From the NCBI GenBank assembly GCA_041663005.1, contig JBAZRK010000002.1:205402-269401 (forward strand): a DNA stretch of 64,000 nt, read 5' to 3'. Under the pieces are notes generated by a model, which saw nothing but the letters and a program-made list of their open reading frames with translations, had not been told where the DNA came from and ran no database searches. The DNA comes from Minisyncoccota bacterium. GTDB taxonomy: Bacteria; Patescibacteriota; Minisyncoccia; Phycocordibacterales; UBA9973. Position numbers and translations under genes: made by a program. Of the stretch, positions 3,596 through 42,833 are shown one piece after another. Each line of letters begins with the position of its first letter. The stretch's first letter is position 1.

Positions 3596-4675
3596 ATGTT
3601 ATATACGCCTTTCTACGACCCAAGTAAAACATACGAAGAAAACTTCGCAGAAGGACCATTTGGGGTTTTTGCCCGCCCGACTGAGCAGTCGTTCGGGCGG
3701 GCTGACGGGGAACCAAAATATGATTTCCTTGGCGTTAAAGTAAATTCGCCATTCGGAATTCCTGCCGGACCATTGATCAATTCAAATTTTTGTAAAGGAG
3801 CATTTGAAAAAGGGTTTGATATTTGTGTCTATAAGACAGTGCGCTCGGGAGTTTACCCCTGCCACCCATTTCCCAATGTTTTGTCAGTAAAAATTGAGGG
3901 GAATCTGACTTTGGAAAAAGCTCAGGAAAAATTAATTGCCGACAATAATTATGTTGAGCCGATTTCTATAACTAATTCTTTCGGCGTGCCTTCGCGAGAA
4001 GCGACAGCTTGGCAGGACGATGTAAAACAAGCACTTACTTATGCGCGAGCTGGGCAAGTTTTAGTTTTAGGTTTTATGGGTACAGTGCGCGAAGGGCTGA
4101 CAGCGGAAGAATTTATTGCTGACTACGCGCTGGCAGCAAAACAAGCCAAAGAAACAGGAGTAAAAATTCTAGAGACAAATTTATCTTGTCCCAACATCGG
4201 TAACGAAGGTCTTGTCTGCTACAACCTAGATATGACAGCAAAAGTTTGCACAGCTATACGAAAAGAAATAGGGGACACCCCGCTCATTTTAAAAGTTGGC
4301 TACTATAAAGACTATGAAGATGTGAAAAAGCTCGCAGAAATTTGTAAGAAATATGCGCAGGCAATTTCGGCCATCAATACTATCCCCGCAGAAATTGTGG
4401 ACAAAGAAGGGAAGCAAGCATTGCCTGGGCCCAACAGAGTAAAATCAGGAGTATGCGGAGCATCTATAAAATGGGCGGGGCTCGAAATGGCAGAAAAGTT
4501 GAAGAAAGCCCGTACGGAAATAGGCGCAGGGTTTAAAATTATTGGTGTCGGCGGAGTTATGACTTCCGAGGATTTCTTTGAATACCGAAAAGCTGGGGCG
4601 GATTTCGTAATGTCGGCTACCGGAGCTATGTGGAACCCTCATCTTGCTAAAGAGATAAAAGAAAGGCTAGAATAA
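3596..4675 (+). CDS. pyrD: dihydroorotate dehydrogenase-like flavoprotein (class 1 PyrD family)
   Basis: NLSCPN active-site motif, C-terminal IGVGGV FMN-binding motif, TIM-barrel-like layout; neighbour of pyrE and pyrF. Confidence 0.55.
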   Translation: MLYTPFYDPSKTYEENFAEGPFGVFARPTEQSFGRADGEPKYDFLGVKVNSPFGIPAGPLINSNFCKGAFEKGFDICVYKTVRSGVYPCHPFPNVLSVKIEGNLTLEKAQEKLIADNNYVEPISITNSFGVPSREATAWQDDVKQALTYARAGQVLVLGFMGTVREGLTAEEFIADYALAAKQAKETGVKILETNLSCPNIGNEGLVCYNLDMTAKVCTAIRKEIGDTPLILKVGYYKDYEDVKKLAEICKKYAQAISAINTIPAEIVDKEGKQALPGPNRVKSGVCGASIKWAGLEMAEKLKKARTEIGAGFKIIGVGGVMTSEDFFEYRKAGADFVMSATGAMWNPHLAKEIKERLE

Positions 4676-4679
4676 CAAT

Positions 4680-5306
4680 ATGGATATCATTTCTTTACTA
4701 AAAGCCGTAGGCGCTGTAATGCCGGACAGCCATTTTGTCGGAGTGTCAGGCAAGCATATGGCGACCTACATTACCAAAGACGCTTTATTCCCCCACGTTT
4801 TAGAAGTTGAAAAAGTTTGCCAGATGTTTGCTGAAAAAAATAAAGATGTAGATGTAGATGTAGATGTGGTTGCGGCGCCCGCACTCGGGGGAATAATTTT
4901 AGCTCAAGGTACTGCTTATGCGCTCTCTAAAATTAAAGGCAAAGAAATTCTAGCGATATTTACGGAAAAAACAGGAGATGGGGATCAGGTTTTCACCAGA
5001 GGGTACGATAAATACGTCGCTGGCAAAAATGTTCTAGTTTTAGAAGATTTAACGACGACGGGGGGCTCAGTGCAAAAAGTTATAGCAAGTGTAAAGAAGG
5101 CGGGAGGAAATGTGCTGGCTGTCTCCGTAATGGTAAATAAATCTCCAAAAGTAGTTAATAGCGAGATGTTTGGCGTGCCACTGAGGGCCCTCGGAGAGCT
5201 TGAGATAGAAAATTATGATGCCGAAAATTGCCCGCTTTGTAAAAATAATATTCCTATCAATACAGACTTCGGACACGGTAAGAAATTTTTAGAATCCAAA
5301 AAATAG
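4680..5306 (+). CDS. pyrE: orotate phosphoribosyltransferase (type I PRTase)
   Basis: PRPP-binding motif VLVLEDLTTTGGS; about 200 aa; lies between pyrD-like and pyrF. Contains an in-frame (GATGTA)x4 repeat encoding DVDVDVDV. Confidence 0.55.
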   Translation: MDIISLLKAVGAVMPDSHFVGVSGKHMATYITKDALFPHVLEVEKVCQMFAEKNKDVDVDVDVVAAPALGGIILAQGTAYALSKIKGKEILAIFTEKTGDGDQVFTRGYDKYVAGKNVLVLEDLTTTGGSVQKVIASVKKAGGNVLAVSVMVNKSPKVVNSEMFGVPLRALGELEIENYDAENCPLCKNNIPINTDFGHGKKFLESKK

Positions 5307-10661: not shown

Positions 10662-10684
10662 AAAAGCCCCGAACGGGGCTTTTA
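10662..10684 (+). terminator. intrinsic terminator inside the ribosomal cluster, after rplB
   Basis: AAAAGCCCCGAACGGGGCTTTT: GC stem with a T-tract. Confidence 0.6.
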
Positions 10685-10686
10685 AT

Positions 10687-10714
10687 TTGACTTTTACTGC
10701 CAATTTGCTACTAT
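10687..10714 (+). promoter_or_regulatory. internal promoter TTGACT-N16-TACTAT upstream of rpsS
   Basis: -35 at 10687-10692 and -10 at 10709-10714. The spacer is almost identical to that of the tuf promoter (CAATTTGCTACTATG). Confidence 0.45.
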
Positions 10715-13623: not shown

Positions 13624-13842
13624 ATGAAAATCAAGAAAGGCGACAGCGTAATAATAATGGCAGGCAAGGATAAAGGTAAATCCGGTAAAGTTGTGCATGC
13701 CCTACCGAAAAAGAATAAAGTCGTAGTGGAGGGTCTTAATATGACCAAACGACACCAGAGGCCAAGGAAGTCCGGCGAGAAGGGGACAGTTTTAAGTATG
13801 GCTATGCCTATCGATGTGTCTAATGTAAAAAAAGCAAAATAG
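13624..13842 (+). CDS. rplX: 50S ribosomal protein L24 (short form)
   Basis: KOW-like motif MKIKKGDSVIIMAGKDKGK. Confidence 0.8.
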   Translation: MKIKKGDSVIIMAGKDKGKSGKVVHALPKKNKVVVEGLNMTKRHQRPRKSGEKGTVLSMAMPIDVSNVKKAK

Positions 13843-13866
13843 TTCGACGAGCTCACTATAAATAAT
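13843..13866 (+). promoter_or_regulatory. conserved 24-nt intergenic motif, family B copy 1 (GTTCGACGAGCTCACTATAAATAA)
   Basis: Lies immediately after the rplX stop and 11 nt before the rplE ATG; near-identical copies sit at 15172-15196 and 16753-16776. Confidence 0.5.
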
Positions 13867-13877
13867 TCTATATAAGT

Positions 13878-14426
13878 ATGAAGCATTCAACAGTAAAAGA
13901 AAGAGAAATACAGAGTTTTGAAAAAATGAAAGGAGCTTTTCATTATAAAAACTCAATGGCGGCACCACGTTTAGAGAAAGTGGTGGTCAATACCGGCACC
14001 GGCACCGCTATGAAAAAGGATAAAAACAAAAACGAAGCAATAGCTTTGCGATTGTCGAAAATTACCGGACAGAAAGCCTCTCTCCGTGGAGCCAAGCAGT
14101 CAATTTCATCCTTTAAGGTTCGACAGGGAGACCCTATCGGCGCTATGGTGACCCTACGAGGCAAAAGAATGTTTGCCTTCCTTGAGAAGCTCATAAACGT
14201 AGCTCTACCCCGCACGAAGGACTTCCGAGGTATCAAGCGCGGCGCAGTGGACAACATTGGTAACCTAACCATCGGTATCAAAGAACACACAATTTTCCCG
14301 GAAACAGCAGATGAAGATATTCGCGACGTTTTCGGTCTGTCTATCACTCTTGTCTCTACGGCAAAAACAAAAGCTGAAGGTCTCGCTTTCTTCGAAAACT
14401 TGGGCGTGCCTTTCAAGAAGGAATAA
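13878..14426 (+). CDS. rplE: 50S ribosomal protein L5
   Basis: L5-family sequence (…PRLEKVVVNTG…AMVTLRG…); position in the spc cluster. Confidence 0.85.
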   Translation: MKHSTVKEREIQSFEKMKGAFHYKNSMAAPRLEKVVVNTGTGTAMKKDKNKNEAIALRLSKITGQKASLRGAKQSISSFKVRQGDPIGAMVTLRGKRMFAFLEKLINVALPRTKDFRGIKRGAVDNIGNLTIGIKEHTIFPETADEDIRDVFGLSITLVSTAKTKAEGLAFFENLGVPFKKE

Positions 14427-14436
14427 TTTCGTACGT

Positions 14437-14465
14437 TTGACTATTGAGCTTTAATTTGCTAGTAT
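14437..14465 (+). promoter_or_regulatory. internal promoter TTGACT-N17-TAGTAT upstream of the S14 gene
   Basis: Third copy of the TTGACW…AATTTGCTA(C/G)TAT promoter block. Confidence 0.4.
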
Positions 14466-14579
14466 CGGAGTAAGGGAATACCGCTGTGATTAATCCGCTT
14501 TTCTCCTCCGACGCCTTATATTATAAGGGTTCGGAGAAAAAAAGTGAGATATTAACAGAGCGCTCCCGAATAATTATTT

Positions 14580-14765
14580 ATGGCAAAAACATCAGTTATC
14601 GCAAGAAGCAAAAAGAAACCTAAATTTTCAACTCGAGCAAAAAATCGATGTTTTAAGTGTGGGCGCGGGAATGCCTTTATGCGCGATTTTGGAATTTGCC
14701 GAATCTGTTTCAGGGAATTAGCAAATGAAGGAATGCTGCCTGGAGTCAGGAAGTCTTCTTGGTAG
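14580..14765 (+). CDS. rpsZ: 30S ribosomal protein S14, zinc-binding type Z
   Basis: 61 aa with [10 protein letters not shown]…CRICFRE zinc-ribbon cysteines. Confidence 0.85.
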
Positions 14766-14785
14766 TAGAATAGATCACAAAATAT

Positions 14786-15172
14786 ATGGATTCAATTTCA
14801 AACATGATAATAATAATGAAGAACGCTTCGCTCGCCGGTAAAGAAACCGCGGTTGTTCCTTATTCCAAGTTGAAGGGCGCTATAGGTGACTGTCTCCAGA
14901 AAGCCGGCTATGTCGGTGAAATTTCGAAGAAAGTGAAGAAAGGACACCCGATTATGGAAGTAAAACTTTTGTACGTGGACAAAAAACCCAAAATTGCCGA
15001 AGTTGAAAGAATTTCCAAACAGTCTCGCCGAGTGTATTTCGGTATGAAAGATATTCATACTGTCAGAAACGGTACAGGGCTTTTAGTGCTTTCAACACCA
15101 AAGGGAATTTTATCAGGCAAGGATGCCCGCAAAGAGCAAGTGGGAGGTGAAGCTTTATTTAGAATTTGGTAG
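14786..15172 (+). CDS. rpsH: 30S ribosomal protein S8
   Basis: 128 aa, after S14; S8-like C-terminus (LSTPKGILSGKDARKEQVGGEAL). Confidence 0.85.
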   Translation: MDSISNMIIIMKNASLAGKETAVVPYSKLKGAIGDCLQKAGYVGEISKKVKKGHPIMEVKLLYVDKKPKIAEVERISKQSRRVYFGMKDIHTVRNGTGLLVLSTPKGILSGKDARKEQVGGEALFRIW

Positions 15173-15196
15173 TTCGACAAGCTCACTATAAATAAA
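15172..15196 (+). promoter_or_regulatory. family B intergenic motif copy 2 (GTTCGACAAGCTCACTATAAATAA)
   Basis: Lies between the rpsH stop and rplF start; 23/24 identical to copy 1. Confidence 0.5.
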
Positions 15197-15202
15197 AATT
15201 TT

Positions 15203-15736
15203 ATGTCACGAATAGGAAAACAAGAAATTTTAATACCAGCAGGAATCAAGATCACCAAAAGTGGCAACACTTTGTCAGTGGTGGGCCCGAAGGGGACCCT
15301 GTCGAAAATATTTCGTGATGATATAACAATGGAAGTTACCGACAAGTCTGTGAAGCTTGATATCAAACGCAACGATAAGTTTTCCAAGGCTCTCTGGGGT
15401 ACCTACGCTTCCCACATCAAGAATATGATTAAAGGCGTAACCACTCCGTATCAGAAGAAGCTCGTGCTCGAAGGAGTTGGATTCAAGTCAGAAGTGAAGG
15501 GCAAGGAACTTCATTTGGCGCTTGGCTTTTCTCACCCAGTTGTTGTTAAAATTCCCGAAGGCATTGCTATGAAAGCCGAGAAGAACGTAATTTCCGTAGA
15601 AGGCATTGATAAGGAATTAGTAGGTAGCTTCACTGCTGCCGTACGTGCCTTAAAGAAGCCGGAGCCATATAAGGGTAAGGGTATGCGTTACGAAGACGAA
15701 GTAATACGTCGCAAGCAGGGCAAGAAGACAGTTTAA
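15203..15736 (+). CDS. rplF: 50S ribosomal protein L6
   Basis: MSRIGKQEILIPAGIKIT is the canonical L6 N-terminus. Confidence 0.85.
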   Translation: MSRIGKQEILIPAGIKITKSGNTLSVVGPKGTLSKIFRDDITMEVTDKSVKLDIKRNDKFSKALWGTYASHIKNMIKGVTTPYQKKLVLEGVGFKSEVKGKELHLALGFSHPVVVKIPEGIAMKAEKNVISVEGIDKELVGSFTAAVRALKKPEPYKGKGMRYEDEVIRRKQGKKTV

Positions 15737-15743
15737 AATAACA

Positions 15744-15779
15744 GACGTCGGACATCAAGAATCCCAGATGTCCGACGTC
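15744..15779. repeat. palindromic intergenic repeat, family A copy 2 (perfect 13-bp arms GACGTCGGACATC / GATGTCCGACGTC)
   Basis: Arms at 15744-15756 and 15767-15779, lying between rplF and rplR. Confidence 0.65.
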
Positions 15780-15793
15780 AAGAAGACAAACAC

Positions 15794-16135
15794 ATGCAAA
15801 CAAAAACAGACAAAAGAATCAGACTTAAGAAAAAAATCAGAACTAAAATCCGCGGTTCGGCCGAGCGCCCACGCCTGTCTGTTTTCCGTTCCAACAAATT
15901 TATTTACGCGCAAGTCATTGATGACACAGTAGGGAAGACTTTGGTTTCTGCCAGCGATGTTAAGGTTGCCAAAGGTACCAAGATTGAACGAGCCAAGGAA
16001 GTAGGGAAGGCCATCGCGCTTGAATGCGGTAAGGCAAAGATTAAAAAAGTTGTCTTTGACCGCAATGGATTCAAGTACACCGGCCGAATTAAATTAGTCG
16101 CCGATGTTGCCAGAGAAGGCGGATTGGAATTTTAA
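15794..16135 (+). CDS. rplR: 50S ribosomal protein L18
   Basis: [35 protein letters not shown] is the canonical L18 N-terminus. Confidence 0.85.
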
Positions 16136-16186
16136 AAGCGTCGCGCTTTAATGGACGATTGCGCGACATGATTTCGTAAAATCAAT

Positions 16187-16750
16187 ATGGAAAAAAGAAA
16201 CGAAAAAAAAGGTAGCGGGCGCAGAGGGGGATCGTCATTCGGACGCCCTAAGCCTGAGTTCGACCAGAAAATCATAGACATTAGGCGCGTGACTCGTGTG
16301 GTTGCCGGAGGACGCCGATTTTCTTTCTCCGTGGCGTTGGTTGCCGGAGACAAAAAAGGGAATGTTGGATTGGGATTAGGAAAGGCAGGAGACACAGCCC
16401 TCGCCATCAACAAAGCCCTCCGCAATGCCAAGAAAAATATGGTTAAACTTCACCTGACTAAAACTATGTCTATTCCGCACGAACTTTCTGCTAAATTCTC
16501 AAGCTCGAAAGTGGCGCTCTATCCTAACAAGGGACGTGGCTTGGTGGCTGGATCAGTAATTCGTGATATCGTAAACCTCTCCGGAGCGAAAGACATAACC
16601 GGCAAGATTCTCTCTCGCAGTACAAATAAATTAAACAACGCTAAGGCCGTAATGGAAGCATTCAAAGGAATTTCTTCACGATACACTAAAGCTGCACCGG
16701 AAGTTTCAGCCACAGTCGTTGTTGCCAATAAAGAAGTACCAGTAGAATAA
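16187..16750 (+). CDS. rpsE: 30S ribosomal protein S5
   Basis: S5 dsRBD and C-terminal domain (RVTRVVAGGRRFSFSVALVAGDKKGNVGLGLGKA). Confidence 0.9.
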   Translation: MEKRNEKKGSGRRGGSSFGRPKPEFDQKIIDIRRVTRVVAGGRRFSFSVALVAGDKKGNVGLGLGKAGDTALAINKALRNAKKNMVKLHLTKTMSIPHELSAKFSSSKVALYPNKGRGLVAGSVIRDIVNLSGAKDITGKILSRSTNKLNNAKAVMEAFKGISSRYTKAAPEVSATVVVANKEVPVE

Positions 16751-16752
16751 TG

Positions 16753-16776
16753 GTTCGACAAGCTCACCATAAATAA
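16753..16776 (+). promoter_or_regulatory. family B intergenic motif copy 3 (GTTCGACAAGCTCACCATAAATAA)
   Basis: Lies between the rpsE stop and the L15 start. There is no L30 gene between S5 and L15. Confidence 0.5.
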
Positions 16777-16777
16777 T

Positions 16778-17089
16778 ATGCAAATACATAATCTAAAAAG
16801 AATACATAAGAACAAGAAAGATCGGCTAGTGGGCCGCGGGGGGAAGCACGCTAAGACTTCCGGTCGCGGAGGCAAGGGGCAGACTGCCCGCGCCGGTAAC
16901 AAGCGCCGACCCGAACTTCGAGATATAATTAAGAAGTTGCCAAAGAATCGCGGTTACCAATTCAAATCTATCCAAAAGATGGTGCTCGTAGCGAAAGATA
17001 AAACCATCTCGAGCGGCACTAAGAAGGAGACCTTTAAAGAGATACGAAAGCGACTAGGGATTAAGGGCGGGAAGATTAAAGTTAAGTAA
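16778..17089 (+). CDS. rplO: 50S ribosomal protein L15 (short, 103 aa)
   Basis: Gly/Arg/Lys-rich L15-like N-terminus (GRGGKHAKTSGRGGKGQTARAG), positioned just before secY. Confidence 0.7.
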   Translation: MQIHNLKRIHKNKKDRLVGRGGKHAKTSGRGGKGQTARAGNKRRPELRDIIKKLPKNRGYQFKSIQKMVLVAKDKTISSGTKKETFKEIRKRLGIKGGKIKVK

Positions 17090-33388: not shown

Positions 33389-33462
33389 CCGTCCTTAGCT
33401 CAGTTGGTTAGAGCACAGAGCTTATACCTCTGGGGTCCTTGGTTCGAATCCAAGAGGACGGA
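33389..33462 (+). tRNA. tRNA-Ile with anticodon UAU (manual fold)
   Basis: Acceptor CCGTCCT/AGGACGG, D-arm GCTC-AGTTGGTTA-GAGC, anticodon stem CAGAG/CTCTG with loop CTTATAC (anticodon TAT), T-arm CTTGG-TTCGAAT-CCAAG, discriminator A; CCA not encoded. Confidence 0.6.
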
Positions 33463-33626
33463 CACTAAAAATCTAAAAAATTTACCTCGTACGGGCTTGT
33501 AGTTGCTCGATTTTACAGAGTGTCTCTTGTTTTATTTTTTCTCCTGTTTTCTTTTGCAAAGTTTTCCAAAAAACAGTGGTTTTCCACTTTACATTGAGGG
33601 GCTAACTGCGTGATAATGATAGTCCA

Positions 33627-38582: not shown

Positions 38583-40763
38583 TTATTCGAAATGAAAAAC
38601 GCCCGCCTTGGAGCTAACTTTTTTCTTTAGAAGAGGATAATTCTTTAACTCAGGATCTTTTTCAATTAGAGCAATAGCTTCTGTGCGCGCAGCTTCCACC
38701 ATTTTTATATTTTTTATAGCTTCCATACCTAGGTCGGTGATACCCCATTGTTTGGTGCCGCCGAGTTCTCCCGCACCACGAAGAGATAAATCCAATTCTG
38801 CGAGCTCGAAACCATTTTTTGCAGTTTTCAGGGCTTTTAATCTACTTATGGTTTTTTCACTCTTAGCGTCGGCAAAAATATAACAATATGCTTGGTGGGC
38901 GCTTCTGATGACGCGCCCGCGAAGCTGGTGAAGCTGAGCCAAGCCAAAACGTTCGGCACCTTCAATAATTATTATTGTGGCATTTGGTACATTAACGCCG
39001 ACTTCGACTACGGAAGTGGCGCATAAAATATTTATTTTCCCATCAGTGAATTCCTGCATTACTTGTTCTTTCTTTTCTTTACTCATCTTGGAGTGAAGGA
39101 CGCCGATTTCGTACTCTTGGAAAACTTCTTTCTTTAAGCGTTTGGCTTCCGCCATTACGGACTTCACGTTTAAAGCCATTTCTTTTTCCGGATCCGGTTC
39201 GTTGATTCTAGGGCAAATCACATATAGCTGGCGTCCGGCTCCGAGCTCTTTTCTTATTTCTTCATAAGTCTCACCACGCTTGGGTGGAGTAATTATTTCA
39301 GTAATTATTTCCTTTCGCCCTGCTGGCATCTCGTCCAAAAGTGAAAGATCTAGGTCTCCATAAATAGTGAGCGCCAGAGTGCGGGGGATGGGGGTCGCGG
39401 TCATCGATAAAAGGTGCGGAGCCAGGCCGTCCTTGCGCACCAGCTTTCTTCTTTGTGCAGTTCCGAAGCGGTGCTGTTCATCAATCACTGCCAATGCCAA
39501 ATTTTTAAATTTAACAGTTTTCTGAATTAAAGCGTGTGTGCCTATAAGGATAGGTACCTCTCCGTTGGCGACCCACTTTAGTAATTGCGGCCTAGAAATT
39601 GTAGTCCACCCGCCAGGATTTACTTTCGAGGGGAATTTCCTACAGCCACTCCCGGTGATTAGGCCTACGTTTATCGGTAGGTGGTTAAAATACTTTATAA
39701 AAGATTCGAAATGTTGAGTTGCCAGTATTTCTGTAGGTGCCATATAGGCCACTTGCAGGTTTCCAAAATCCTGAGGCTTGCCCTGAGCGAAGTCGAAGGG
39801 CCTTTGCTTTACTGCCACATAGCTTGCAGTCGCAGCGACTGCCGTTTTACCACTCCCGACATCACCCTCAAGCAGGCGCGACATCGGGTAAGTTCTTTTC
39901 ATATCGCCAAGAATTGTTTCGATAGACTTTTTCTGGCTCTTGGTAGGCTCAAAAGGGAATCTCGATAAAAATTCTTCCACATCTCCTTCTCTGGGTGTAA
40001 TTTTAAAAGATTTATTTTTGCGATATTCAAATTTGTCGTGTTGGCGTTCGAGCTGGATGCAAAACACTTCTTCGAAGGCAAATCTTTTGCGCGCAGATTC
40101 GGCGTCATTTTTATTTCTTGGTTTGTGCATCCAAACAAGTGCAGTTTTAAGCGTCGGGAGGTGATATTTTTTTAAAATTTCTGGAGGTATATAGTCGACA
40201 ATAGTGTCGAGAGTTTTATCTTTCAAAACTTTCTCTACGGCGTGATAAAACCATTTTGAAGTAATGCCTCTAGTCTCCGCATAGACAGGGTAGGAGAAGC
40301 CTTCGTTCGAAGCTCCGCTTTGTTTAAACAAAGTATCGTGTGCATCAATCGGCATATCAGGGGCCTTTTCAAATTCAGGATTTGCTAAGTAAATGCCATT
40401 TTTACTTTCCGTAACTTTTCCGGTGAGCTTTATGGTGTCACCGCTTTTAATCATCTTTGCTAGGTAGGCTTGGTGGTACCAAATTATTTTGATTTTTCCG
40501 GTTAGGTCTTCGACCTCACCTTCACCCATTGGGATTTTAGAACGGAACCCCTTTTTGGTCCTAAGCTTTGCCACCTTACCATATACGGTAGCTGTGTCTC
40601 CGGGCAGCAATTCATCTATGTTTTTTATCACACTCATATCGCTGTAGCGTACAGGGAAATGGAAAAGCAGGTCCCCCACAGTCACAATCTTAAGTCGAGC
40701 CAAGGCCTTCTTCTGGAGGGTGTCAGGGTGTAATTTAATCTCAAGTCTATCGTCTAAATTCAT
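38583..40763 (-). CDS. recG: ATP-dependent DNA helicase RecG
   Basis: Wedge domain plus SF2 helicase motifs (GDVGSGKT, DEQHRFG, TATPIPRT). Confidence 0.85.
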   Translation of the reverse strand: MNLDDRLEIKLHPDTLQKKALARLKIVTVGDLLFHFPVRYSDMSVIKNIDELLPGDTATVYGKVAKLRTKKGFRSKIPMGEGEVEDLTGKIKIIWYHQAYLAKMIKSGDTIKLTGKVTESKNGIYLANPEFEKAPDMPIDAHDTLFKQSGASNEGFSYPVYAETRGITSKWFYHAVEKVLKDKTLDTIVDYIPPEILKKYHLPTLKTALVWMHKPRNKNDAESARKRFAFEEVFCIQLERQHDKFEYRKNKSFKITPREGDVEEFLSRFPFEPTKSQKKSIETILGDMKRTYPMSRLLEGDVGSGKTAVAATASYVAVKQRPFDFAQGKPQDFGNLQVAYMAPTEILATQHFESFIKYFNHLPINVGLITGSGCRKFPSKVNPGGWTTISRPQLLKWVANGEVPILIGTHALIQKTVKFKNLALAVIDEQHRFGTAQRRKLVRKDGLAPHLLSMTATPIPRTLALTIYGDLDLSLLDEMPAGRKEIITEIITPPKRGETYEEIRKELGAGRQLYVICPRINEPDPEKEMALNVKSVMAEAKRLKKEVFQEYEIGVLHSKMSKEKKEQVMQEFTDGKINILCATSVVEVGVNVPNATIIIIEGAERFGLAQLHQLRGRVIRSAHQAYCYIFADAKSEKTISRLKALKTAKNGFELAELDLSLRGAGELGGTKQWGITDLGMEAIKNIKMVEAARTEAIALIEKDPELKNYPLLKKKVSSKAGVFHFE

Positions 40764-41835: not shown

Positions 41836-42198
41836 ATGCACGAATTATGGAGTGAATTTAAGAAGTTTATTGCCCGAGGCAACGTTATGGACCTCGCGGT
41901 GGGTCTTGCCATAGGTACCGCATTTCAGAAGATAGTCTCTTCGCTTGTAAATGATGTAGTTTTCCCGTCCTTGGCGCCGCTCCTCAATGTGGCCCAGTTT
42001 AGCGATTGGAAATGGGGAGGAGTGCTCATTGGTAGCTTTATCAAGAATATAGTAGATTTTTTAGTCATTGCCCTCGCAATATTCTTCATTGTTAAGGTGT
42101 TCAATCGCTTTCGCAAGAAACAAGATAAATCTAAGACGGCGGAGCTCTCCAAGCAAGAGCAGCTTCTAACCGAAATTCGTGATTTGTTAAAAAAATAG
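41836..42198 (+). CDS. mscL: large-conductance mechanosensitive channel
   Basis: MHELWSEFKKFIARGNVMDLAVGLAIGTAF is the canonical MscL N-terminus. Confidence 0.85.
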   Translation: MHELWSEFKKFIARGNVMDLAVGLAIGTAFQKIVSSLVNDVVFPSLAPLLNVAQFSDWKWGGVLIGSFIKNIVDFLVIALAIFFIVKVFNRFRKKQDKSKTAELSKQEQLLTEIRDLLKK

Positions 42199-42245
42199 TT
42201 CGACCGTTCTATAAACTCAGGGTAAACAAGCTAACTACAAATAAA

Positions 42246-42833
42246 ATGGACATACAGCGCCCACAAGCTCACCAACCCATACCCTCGCACGCCAAGCGGG
42301 TGTTTAAAGGAGTGATGTTTGATGTTTATCAGTGGGAGCAGGAAATGTTTGACGGTTCGCGGGCGATTTTTGAAAAAGTAAAACGTGCGGATACAGTGGT
42401 GGTCTTTGCGGTATTGCCAGACGGTAAAATAATTCTGACTAAACAAGAACAGCCTGGCCGTCCGCCGTTTGTGGGTGCTACCGGCGGGAGAATTGATGAA
42501 GGCGAAGATGTCTTGACCGCAGCCAAGCGTGAGCTCCTGGAAGAGAGTGGCTACATAGCGGAGGAATTTATTTTATGGGACGCCAGATTTCCGGTAGGTA
42601 AGGTAGACTGGGTGGTTTATACCTTCATCGCCAAGGGTTTGAAAAAGATTGCGGACCTGAGCCTCGACGCCGGAGAAAAAATAGAATTGATTACTCTCAC
42701 GCTGGACGAACTTATAGACACAGCGCTCGACAAGAAAACTCATTTTGCGGAGCAAGAGATACTCGAGAAATTTTATCAGGCAAAATACGTTCCGGAAAAG
42801 AGAAAAGAATTGGAGGAATTGTTTAAACCTTAG
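42246..42833 (+). CDS. NUDIX hydrolase
   Basis: Nudix box GGRIDEGEDVLTAAKRELLEESG. Confidence 0.7.
   Translation: MDIQRPQAHQPIPSHAKRVFKGVMFDVYQWEQEMFDGSRAIFEKVKRADTVVVFAVLPDGKIILTKQEQPGRPPFVGATGGRIDEGEDVLTAAKRELLEESGYIAEEFILWDARFPVGKVDWVVYTFIAKGLKKIADLSLDAGEKIELITLTLDELIDTALDKKTHFAEQEILEKFYQAKYVPEKRKELEELFKP

Follow-up and report, generated by a model that had tools for sequence, protein, structure and literature searches.

Copies of a short hairpin cassette from a large cross-phylum family at three ribosomal-protein gene junctions of a Minisyncoccota bacterium

The 64,000-nucleotide stretch analysed here, referred to throughout as the window, comes from a Minisyncoccota bacterium (assembly GCA_041663005.1, contig JBAZRK010000002.1, positions 205,402 to 269,401) and carries an S10-spc ribosomal-protein operon of the Patescibacteria type (Paceibacterota), without an L30 gene. 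Three junctions of this operon, identified with NCBIfam as L24|L5, S8|L6 and S5|L15, hold copies of a single short box. The pattern GTTCGACRAGCTCACYATAAATAA matches the window exactly three times, always on the forward strand (13842-13865, 15172-15195 and 16753-16776), and finds no match in 100 dinucleotide-preserving shuffles, even with up to three mismatches. A preliminary description of the window had reported these boxes. Its three copies are real, although copy 1 starts at 13842 and not at 13843, and copy 2 is 24 rather than 25 nucleotides (nt) long. The arrangement that it gave around the stop and start codons, with upstream stops abutting the boxes and the next ATG close by, is borne out. 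In copies 1 and 2 the box overlaps the TAG stop before it by one base, the final G of the stop being the first G of the box, while for copy 3 the box follows the TAA stop by 2 nt. The boxes end 12, 7 and 1 nt before the next ATG, respectively. All three belong to one large, cross-phylum family of short hairpin cassettes. A covariance model of this family (R1) recovers exactly five members in the window, namely the three boxes, a copy after mscL and a copy inside recG:

13839..13865, + strand: copy 1, L24|L5 junction, 40.5 bits with R1; 5′ stem ATAG 13839-13842 (includes the L24 stop TAG, 13840-13842), loop TTCGACGAGCTCA 13843-13855, 3′ stem CTAT 13856-13859, tail AAATAA 13860-13865; L5 ATG at 13878
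15169..15195, + strand: copy 2, S8|L6 junction, 42.8 bits with R1; 5′ stem GTAG 15169-15172 (includes the S8 stop TAG, 15170-15172), loop TTCGACAAGCTCA 15173-15185, 3′ stem CTAT 15186-15189, tail AAATAA 15190-15195; L6 ATG at 15203
16750..16776, + strand: copy 3, S5|L15 junction, 44.5 bits with R1; 5′ stem ATGG 16750-16753 (its A closes the S5 stop TAA, 16748-16750), loop TTCGACAAGCTCA 16754-16766, 3′ stem CCAT 16767-16770, tail AAATAA 16771-16776; L15 ATG at 16778
39776..39801, - strand: GC-type member in frame inside recG, 25.7 bits with R1; GCCC 39801-39798, loop TTCGACTTCGCTCA 39797-39784, GGG 39783-39781, tail CAAGC 39780-39776
42196..42216, + strand: truncated member after mscL, 20.2 bits with R1 (E=0.005), outside the training set; mscL stop TAG 42196-42198, shortened loop TTCGACCGTT 42199-42208 with GCTCA lost, CTA 42209-42211, tail TAAAC 42212-42216; a Nudix hydrolase gene starts at 42246

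The copy after mscL, previously noted as a weak relative of the boxes, is a genuine member, being recovered by a model that was not trained on it. What the earlier reading overlooked was the hairpin nature of the boxes, the fifth, GC-rich member in recG, and the occurrence of the element beyond ribosomal-protein operons and beyond this lineage. Copy 3 can also be read as a mini open reading frame (ORF) of eight codons, ATG GTT CGA CAA GCT CAC CAT AAA TAA (MVRQAHHK; 16750-16776), whose ATG overlaps the S5 stop (TAATG) and whose own stop lies 1 nt before the L15 ATG. This peptide is encoded by all ATGG-type copies and is likely a by-product of the stem sequence.

The element consists of a stem of free sequence (3-5 bp), a loop of 13-14 bases with the form TTCGAC-(AA or NNN)-GCTCA, and a tail, YAARY. 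The middle of the loop varies among members: besides AA, it can hold three bases (TTC, TAC, TAT and others) or an entire additional hairpin. Tails take the forms TAAAT, TAAAC and CAAGC; TAAAT(AA) is found in AT-rich Patescibacteria, and GC-type members have a different tail. The AT-rich version, TAGTTCGACAAGCTCACTATAAATAA, closes each of the three forward reading frames with a stop codon, and its end is A/T-rich, G-poor sequence of the kind found before essentially every start codon in this genome, which lacks Shine-Dalgarno (SD) signals. Copies 1 and 2 read (A/G)TAG-TTCGAC(G/A)AGCTCA-CTAT and copy 3 reads ATGG-TTCGACAAGCTCA-CCAT; the consensus Y within the box pairs with the R two bases upstream of it. 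A compensatory double change alone, from A-T to G-C, separates copy 3 from copy 2 (TGG/CCA as against TAG/CTA).

The same pairing recurs throughout the family. We scanned one genome per species (596 Gb, both strands) with TTCGACNAGCTCACNATAAA, a pattern of 18 fixed bases that leaves the 5′ flanks unconstrained and for which about 17 chance matches were estimated. At least 120 loci match, in at least eight phyla. Among the matches listed, the free 5′ flanks pair with the 3′ side, TAG with CTA at least 47 times and TGG with CCA at least 40 times, in some cases with a one-base bulge. A search with relaxed flanks found the same loop on further stems (CCC/GGG, TCC/GGA, GAC/GTC and GATCC/GGATC), and 129 of the 164 different cores have flanks that pair over at least 3 bp. 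For the four-pair stem, 73.5% of cells are paired in an alignment of 150 sequences, compared with 56.6% in shuffles, none of 500 of which reaches the real value. The covariation score of these sequences is 0.459, against 0.162 for shuffles and 0.05-0.18 for slid controls. Stems show no asymmetry between G-U and A-C mismatches that might indicate which strand folds. Some copies are nested, tandem or interrupted (L083 1202-1245, L104 ~1270-1320, L093 ~4600-4680 and L062 4989-5038; L numbers denote loci), and some of these sit in the middle of the loop of another copy, in either orientation.

The recG copy bears on selection. The gene lies on the reverse strand (38583-40763), its protein is identical to a RecG recorded from a 'Candidatus Paceibacterota' metagenome-assembled genome, and the element within it, GCCC TTCGACTTCGCTCA GGGC AAGC, encodes PFDFAQGK at about codon 337 of 726. 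The peptide sits in a surface loop that is approximately 14 residues longer than in the RecG proteins of T. maritima and E. coli. This loop (residues ~335-347, after Walker A) takes three length forms in a set of 120 close RecG proteins: 27 amino acids (aa; 42 proteins), 32 aa with QDKNGK (38 proteins), and 33 aa resembling FDFAQGKP (35 proteins). We compared recG DNA from eight carriers and one non-carrier. In the six carriers with an intact element, whose proteins are ~80-87% identical, synonymous sites are saturated: pairwise codon identity at conserved residues is 41-52%, and 10.7% of codons for invariant residues are the same in all six. The string CCC TTC GAC T(T/A)C GCT CAG, with five fixed codons, is nevertheless identical in all six genes, and the element is the sole run of five identical codons in recG (259 windows tested; 0.0037 such runs expected). 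Its fourth stem pair covaries at synonymous positions, with compensatory changes, and appears as AGG..GGC in two genes, AGA..GGT in two, G-T in one and A-C in one. Without selection, so old an insertion would by now be degraded, as the copies in L208 and L211 are; selection therefore acts on both the nucleic acid sequence and its pairing. As judged from these alignments, retained copies are under purifying selection for sequence and pairing, even within a coding region. Together with the covariation of the stems, this conservation at synonymous sites supports the general idea of the preliminary description, that the boxes represent a functional nucleic-acid element.

The distribution of the family is broad. 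Among the matches listed, about 68 come from Patescibacteria metagenome-assembled genomes (Saccharibacteria, Paceibacteria/Parcubacteria groups, Levy-, Shapiro- and Doudnabacteria, and others), 16 from Planctomycetota and 16 from Bacteroidota, with further matches in Chloroflexota, Zixibacteria, Proteobacteria, Bdellovibrionota, Chlamydiae, Nitrospirota and Fibrobacterota. As a number of these further matches lie on contigs of 0.5-2.5 Mb, mis-binning is not the explanation. An association with phages was rejected, as a viral collection of 2.9 million contigs contains just three matches. Matches of the AT-type motif that appeared to lie inside genes were likewise dismissed, almost all being artefacts of crude ORF calling or chance.

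In Patescibacteria, the genes that follow the listed copies include many ribosomal-protein genes, and also groEL, nusG, ssb, gap, rpmH and genes for a HIT protein and a copper ATPase. At least 12 of the ~68 Patescibacteria loci listed lie in S10-spc operons, and across lineages twelve different junctions are occupied (L23|L2, L2|S19, S3|L16, L16|L29, L29|S17, L14|L24, L24|L5, S14|S8, S8|L6, L6|L18, S5|L15 and L15|SecY). Of the 65 intergenic copies listed from Patescibacteria, 40 finish no more than 20 nt ahead of the following ATG (modal distance 4 nt), and ten of these have a distant upstream gene. In 35/65 the upstream stop lies in or beside the 5′ stem, and five copies abut a stop yet sit 59-162 nt from the next gene or face away from it. 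Outside Patescibacteria, the element often occupies the tip of a longer, genome-specific hairpin or lies beside an inverted partner. Clusters of family members are also found directly after a transfer-messenger RNA (tmRNA) gene (L068 5932-6500) and a tRNA gene (L025 2957-3100), and in L025 part of the 3′ half of the tRNA is duplicated around the element.

To compare orthologous junctions, we used 80 unbiased loci from relatives of the window organism (474 kb), which were obtained through their L6 protein (73-89% identity); the L6 protein of the window itself has no exact match on record. None of 40 relatives carries it at L24|L5, and none of 60 carries an intact copy at S5|L15, where three have an odd variant, TAGTAGAGTAGAGCTCACTA. 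At S8|L6 (78 relatives), about four copies are intact and about seven are decayed, for example TAGTTCACAAGTTCACTA and TAGTTCAACAAATTCACTA, while about five relatives have the element at S14|S8 and two at L14|L24. The closest relative, L121 (L6 89% identical), has plain spacers of 4-12 nt at all three junctions. Filled and empty sites can be matched directly, the S8|L6 spacer of the window being that of L140 and L123 (TAGAAAAATTTTATG) with 21 nt added (TTCGACAAGCTCACTATAAAT). The covariance model finds 13 members in these relatives, eight of them intact, against 0.25 expected. Copies have been gained, lost and decayed at different junctions, and no single copy is therefore a long-established regulator tied to one particular gene. 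Models of target-site duplication (TA or TAA) were rejected because filled and empty pairs are too diverged and give inconsistent boundaries of 21-26 nt, and truncation of L24 by the insertion was ruled out by C-termini of the same length in relatives.

Many further repeat families occupy these spacers in the relatives, so that the junctions are generally colonised by small elements. A second palindrome, with a 13-bp stem (AGACGTCGGA(G/C)ATC ... GATGTCCGACGTC), occurs in the window at L14|L24 (13575-13615) and L6|L18 (15741-15782), and L121, L133, L139 and L057 have other long, genome-specific palindromes at these two junctions. A spacer element of ~75 nt (TACTTGTCCCG...TTATTAATTAAAATTT...GGGATG) lies at S8|L6 in L131, L154 and L155, at S5|L15 in L127 and L148, and at L24|L5 in L166. 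Direct repeats of the AGTTATAAAGTAGAAAG type likewise occupy different ribosomal-protein junctions in different relatives.

Orientation provides a further line of evidence. All five members in the window lie in the sense of their host transcript, including the recG copy on the minority strand, as do all 13 members in the relatives. Of the listed Patescibacteria loci, 48/55 are co-oriented with both neighbouring genes and 7/55 are anti-oriented. In the Patescibacteria genome set there are two cases in which the strand of the local gene differs from that of the locus majority, and in both the copy follows the gene. Taken together, these counts (5/5, 13:0 and 48:7) and the two minority-strand cases favour action in the transcript.

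We propose, with a probability of roughly 0.5, that the cassette is a selected, sense-strand hairpin module of a dispersed family. It would act in the transcript as a weak stem-loop, probably stable only when bound, whose invariant loop would be read by a putative trans-acting factor conserved across bacteria. Between cistrons, the cassette would end the upstream frame, mark the boundary, and provide the next AUG with a short, unstructured, A/U-rich leader. Its most likely effect would be to have the mRNA processed or stabilised in a factor-dependent manner, or to control locally how the downstream cistron is translated. A specific role in processing or stability is a more tentative proposal than the module itself; an RNase processing site had been among the suggestions of the preliminary description. 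Feedback by S8 or by any other single ribosomal protein is not part of this reading.

Several observations weigh against it. The isolated hairpin has a folding energy no better than that of shuffled sequences (-2.6 to -3.1 kcal/mol, z +0.2 to +1.0), and any structure therefore probably needs a partner. The majority of orthologous spacers examined in relatives are without the element, and decay is visible in several copies (L148-L151 at S8|L6; L208 and L211 in recG), which makes it dispensable in many lineages. Outside Patescibacteria there is no orientation bias, with 10 co-oriented and 8 anti-oriented copies by crude gene calls, and the sense bias, being measured in 8-kb loci, is not cleanly separable from a replication-strand bias.

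Readings that tie the boxes to the genes they precede fare worse. The preliminary description had, among other suggestions, pointed to a shared ribosomal-protein operator, analogous to the site near the start of rplE (L5) at which S8 represses the E. coli spc operon. Copy 1 does lie immediately upstream of the L5 start in an spc-type operon, copy 2 directly follows the S8 gene, and no other junction is occupied as often in Patescibacteria as S8|L6. Binding of all three boxes by S8 or another ribosomal protein is nonetheless very improbable. In place of a single conserved site at the first regulated cistron, as in E. coli, one sequence stands at three cistrons here and at twelve junctions across relatives, a poor fit to feedback by a single protein. 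It also precedes unrelated, non-ribosomal genes, lies within recG, and occurs in phyla whose operon layouts are unrelated. Absence from the orthologous spacers of close relatives had been named beforehand as the outcome that would speak against the idea, and the element is mostly absent there, the closest relative lacking it at all three junctions. This absence removes both the idea of an S8/L5 operator and any role specific to a particular ribosomal protein.

Start signals in the window were surveyed in all 74 ORFs of at least 80 aa. An SD core (four bases, -18 to -4) precedes 10/74 genes, compared with a background of 15.5%, and being no commoner than background indicates that the organism is SD-independent throughout; the 20 nt upstream of starts are A/T-rich, with 5-12% G. 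Stop codons are TAA in 56, TAG in 13 and TGA in 4; of the TAG stops, three form part of a hairpin 5′ stem. The earlier suggestion that the box replaces the SD sequence fails as stated, since the window has no SD signal and 71/74 genes start without a box. A related reading, in which the hairpin and its AUAAAUAA tail recruit or hold ribosomes, perhaps through pairing with rRNA, as an enhancer of initiation or re-initiation, would account for the tight spacing to the next ATG, including the ten copies with a long upstream spacer, for the enrichment in highly expressed operons (S10-spc, and before groEL, nusG, ssb, rpmH and gap), and for the chain of overlapping stop and start, mini-ORF and adjacent ATG at copy 3. 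We consider this decidedly unlikely. The tail ATAAATAA merely fits the generic start context of the window, GC-type members have another tail, and close relatives express the same ribosomal-protein genes from spacers of 1-10 nt. Further, the best-conserved copy is that in recG, far from any start, and five copies abut a stop at a distance from the next gene or face away from it. Equally hard to credit as the operator is an internal promoter, with TATAAAT as a -10 box or CTCACTATA as a phage-type core. TATAAA does resemble the -10 hexamer, a gene ending in TGG-TAG generates TTGGTA-N15/16-TATAAA, and nine bases match the T7 promoter core. Both the sigma-70 and the T7 resemblance were rejected, as a promoter scan gives no site that uses a box (no -35 and -10 hexamers 16-18 nt apart are found at the boxes), and the supposed -10 or T7-like bases belong to the variable 3′ stem, which is CCA or GGG in other members. 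Stem covariation and the recG copy would also be left unexplained, and promoter-like sites of canonical sigma-70 form, which the L5|S14 and L2|S19 spacers of the window and its relatives contain, read TTGACT-N16/17-TGCTAGTAT, unlike the boxes.

These promoter-like sites, TTGACT-N16/17-TGCTA(G/C)TAT, lie at 14437-14465 (L5|S14) and ~10686-10714 (L2|S19), and recur in relatives L057 and L071. The L2|S19 site follows a terminator-like hairpin (10664-10685), and the true start of S19 probably lies downstream of the called one (10713). The L5|S14 spacer (14427-14579) is 153 nt long here and 137-1400 nt in relatives, shares its last ~45 nt (AAAAAAAGTGAGATATTAACAGAGCGCTCCCGA...) with L054, and might serve the S14-S8 part of the operon as a leader.

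The main rival to a selected module would be a mobile DNA hairpin that is wholly selfish or neutral, similar to elements of the repetitive extragenic palindromic (REP)/REPIN or MITE type and spread as single-stranded DNA by a HUH-type or other loop-reading enzyme. Proximity to stops and starts would then reflect nothing more than the tiny spacers of a compact genome. Such an element would readily explain sporadic presence at varying junctions, clean pairs of filled and empty sites, nested and tandem copies, inverted pairs, clusters beside tRNA and tmRNA genes, in-frame insertion into recG, decaying copies in spacers that host many other repeats, and the even orientation outside Patescibacteria. 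It does not explain why the recG copy was kept at saturated synonymous sites, with a compensatory change in its stem, nor why the loop is identical across phyla when REP families are species-specific. No transposase-like family recurs among the 974 ORFs of the listed neighbourhoods, where only ribosomal proteins and generic families do (ORFs of the window itself were scanned in part). The tetranucleotide tag of REPs is missing, save where the upstream codon is TGG, and the 2.9 million viral contigs yield only three matches. We regard a wholly selfish origin as credible but somewhat unlikely, since it accounts for mobility and not for recG conservation or cross-phylum loop identity.

An interpretation specific to ribosomal proteins is thus unsupported, and the element is instead a widespread, selected hairpin family that is apparently undescribed. 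No Rfam 15 family is found at the element at gathering score, in the window or at 18 other loci, the only matches in the window being one tmRNA and three tRNAs; at a permissive threshold (E up to 10) nothing appears at the boxes. Literature searches on the element sequence, the peptides it encodes, motifs and promoters of Patescibacteria, and REP or MITE elements in CPR found no description in searchable papers. If our reading holds, a module of ~24 nt, with an identical 11-base loop signature in many phyla, moves between junctions and is yet selected, and this combination of cross-phylum identity, mobility and selection would imply a widely conserved loop reader. It would also provide a handle on the post-transcriptional organisation of operons in SD-less, uncultivated bacteria. 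On a practical level, the element accounts for odd peptides that recur when metagenomes are annotated (PFDFAQGK, FDKL.., MVRQAHHK), as well as for small ORFs called there spuriously, and cautions against taking repeated spacers in ribosomal-protein operons for autoregulatory sites.

Among known systems, REP elements, which affect mRNA stability and the translation of neighbouring genes, are similar in several respects. Like REPs, BIMEs and REPINs, members of the present family are short, imperfect palindromes in transcribed spacers, occur singly, in tandem or inverted, and are present or absent between relatives. However, REPs conserve the whole palindrome within a species and differ between species, whereas here the stem is free and the loop is shared across phyla. 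REP superfamilies carry a conserved GTAG or CGTC tetranucleotide at one end (PMC3733652; for REPIN/RAYT, see PMC3116915 and PMC3337134). Here, the 5′ flank is a variable stem (ATAG, ATGG, GCCC and others), with GTAG appearing only after a TGG codon. REPs number hundreds per genome and are specific to a species or genus, unlike the 5 copies in the 64-kb window, 13 in 474 kb of relatives, and at least eight phyla seen here. No RAYT was seen in the neighbourhoods, copies in Patescibacteria are almost always in the sense orientation, and one is kept within a gene.

Rickettsia palindromic elements (RPEs) are palindromic repeats that insert in frame into protein genes and add a surface peptide, as the recG copy does, but they are 100-150 bp long and confined to one genus, in contrast to an insert of ~18-24 nt from a family that spans phyla. 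The origin hairpins of rolling-circle replicons and CRESS-DNA viruses combine a variable stem with an invariant loop nonanucleotide that is read by a HUH nuclease, and share with the element a free stem and a loop that is invariant over very large evolutionary distances. Such origins are present in one copy per replicon, have stems of 9-11 bp and act on DNA, whereas the element has many chromosomal copies, stems of 3-5 bp, a sense bias pointing to RNA, and no Rep gene that could be found. Multi-copy RNA motifs and self-cleaving ribozymes, such as hammerhead and twister, are similarly sporadic and cross-phylum, with variable stems, about ten invariant core nucleotides and an optional stem. The likeness is one of distribution and layout only; the element has a single obligatory stem, simpler than any known ribozyme, and no Rfam match.

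A final comparison is with tRNA. The two halves of the loop correspond to tRNA signatures, UUCGA to T-loop positions 54-58 and (A)GCUCA to positions 9/10-14 in the D-stem. A tRNA-Ile in the window (33389-33463; anticodon TAT) carries both GGTTCGAAT and TAGCTCAGT. In the element the halves stand in reversed order and without their T-stem and D-stem partners, and neither ARAGORN nor the Rfam tRNA model makes a call; the resemblance is a possible lead on the loop reader rather than a finding. It would be compatible with an uncatalogued, cross-phylum structured RNA whose loop copies the two most conserved tRNA signatures, and which might be read by a universal enzyme of tRNA recognition (RNase P/Z, TruB/TrmA or the like) or might itself be catalytic, an unlikely reading in our estimation. 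Were it true, many phyla would carry a portable form of punctuation, by which mRNAs are processed or marked at the boundaries of cistrons and, now and then, within genes.

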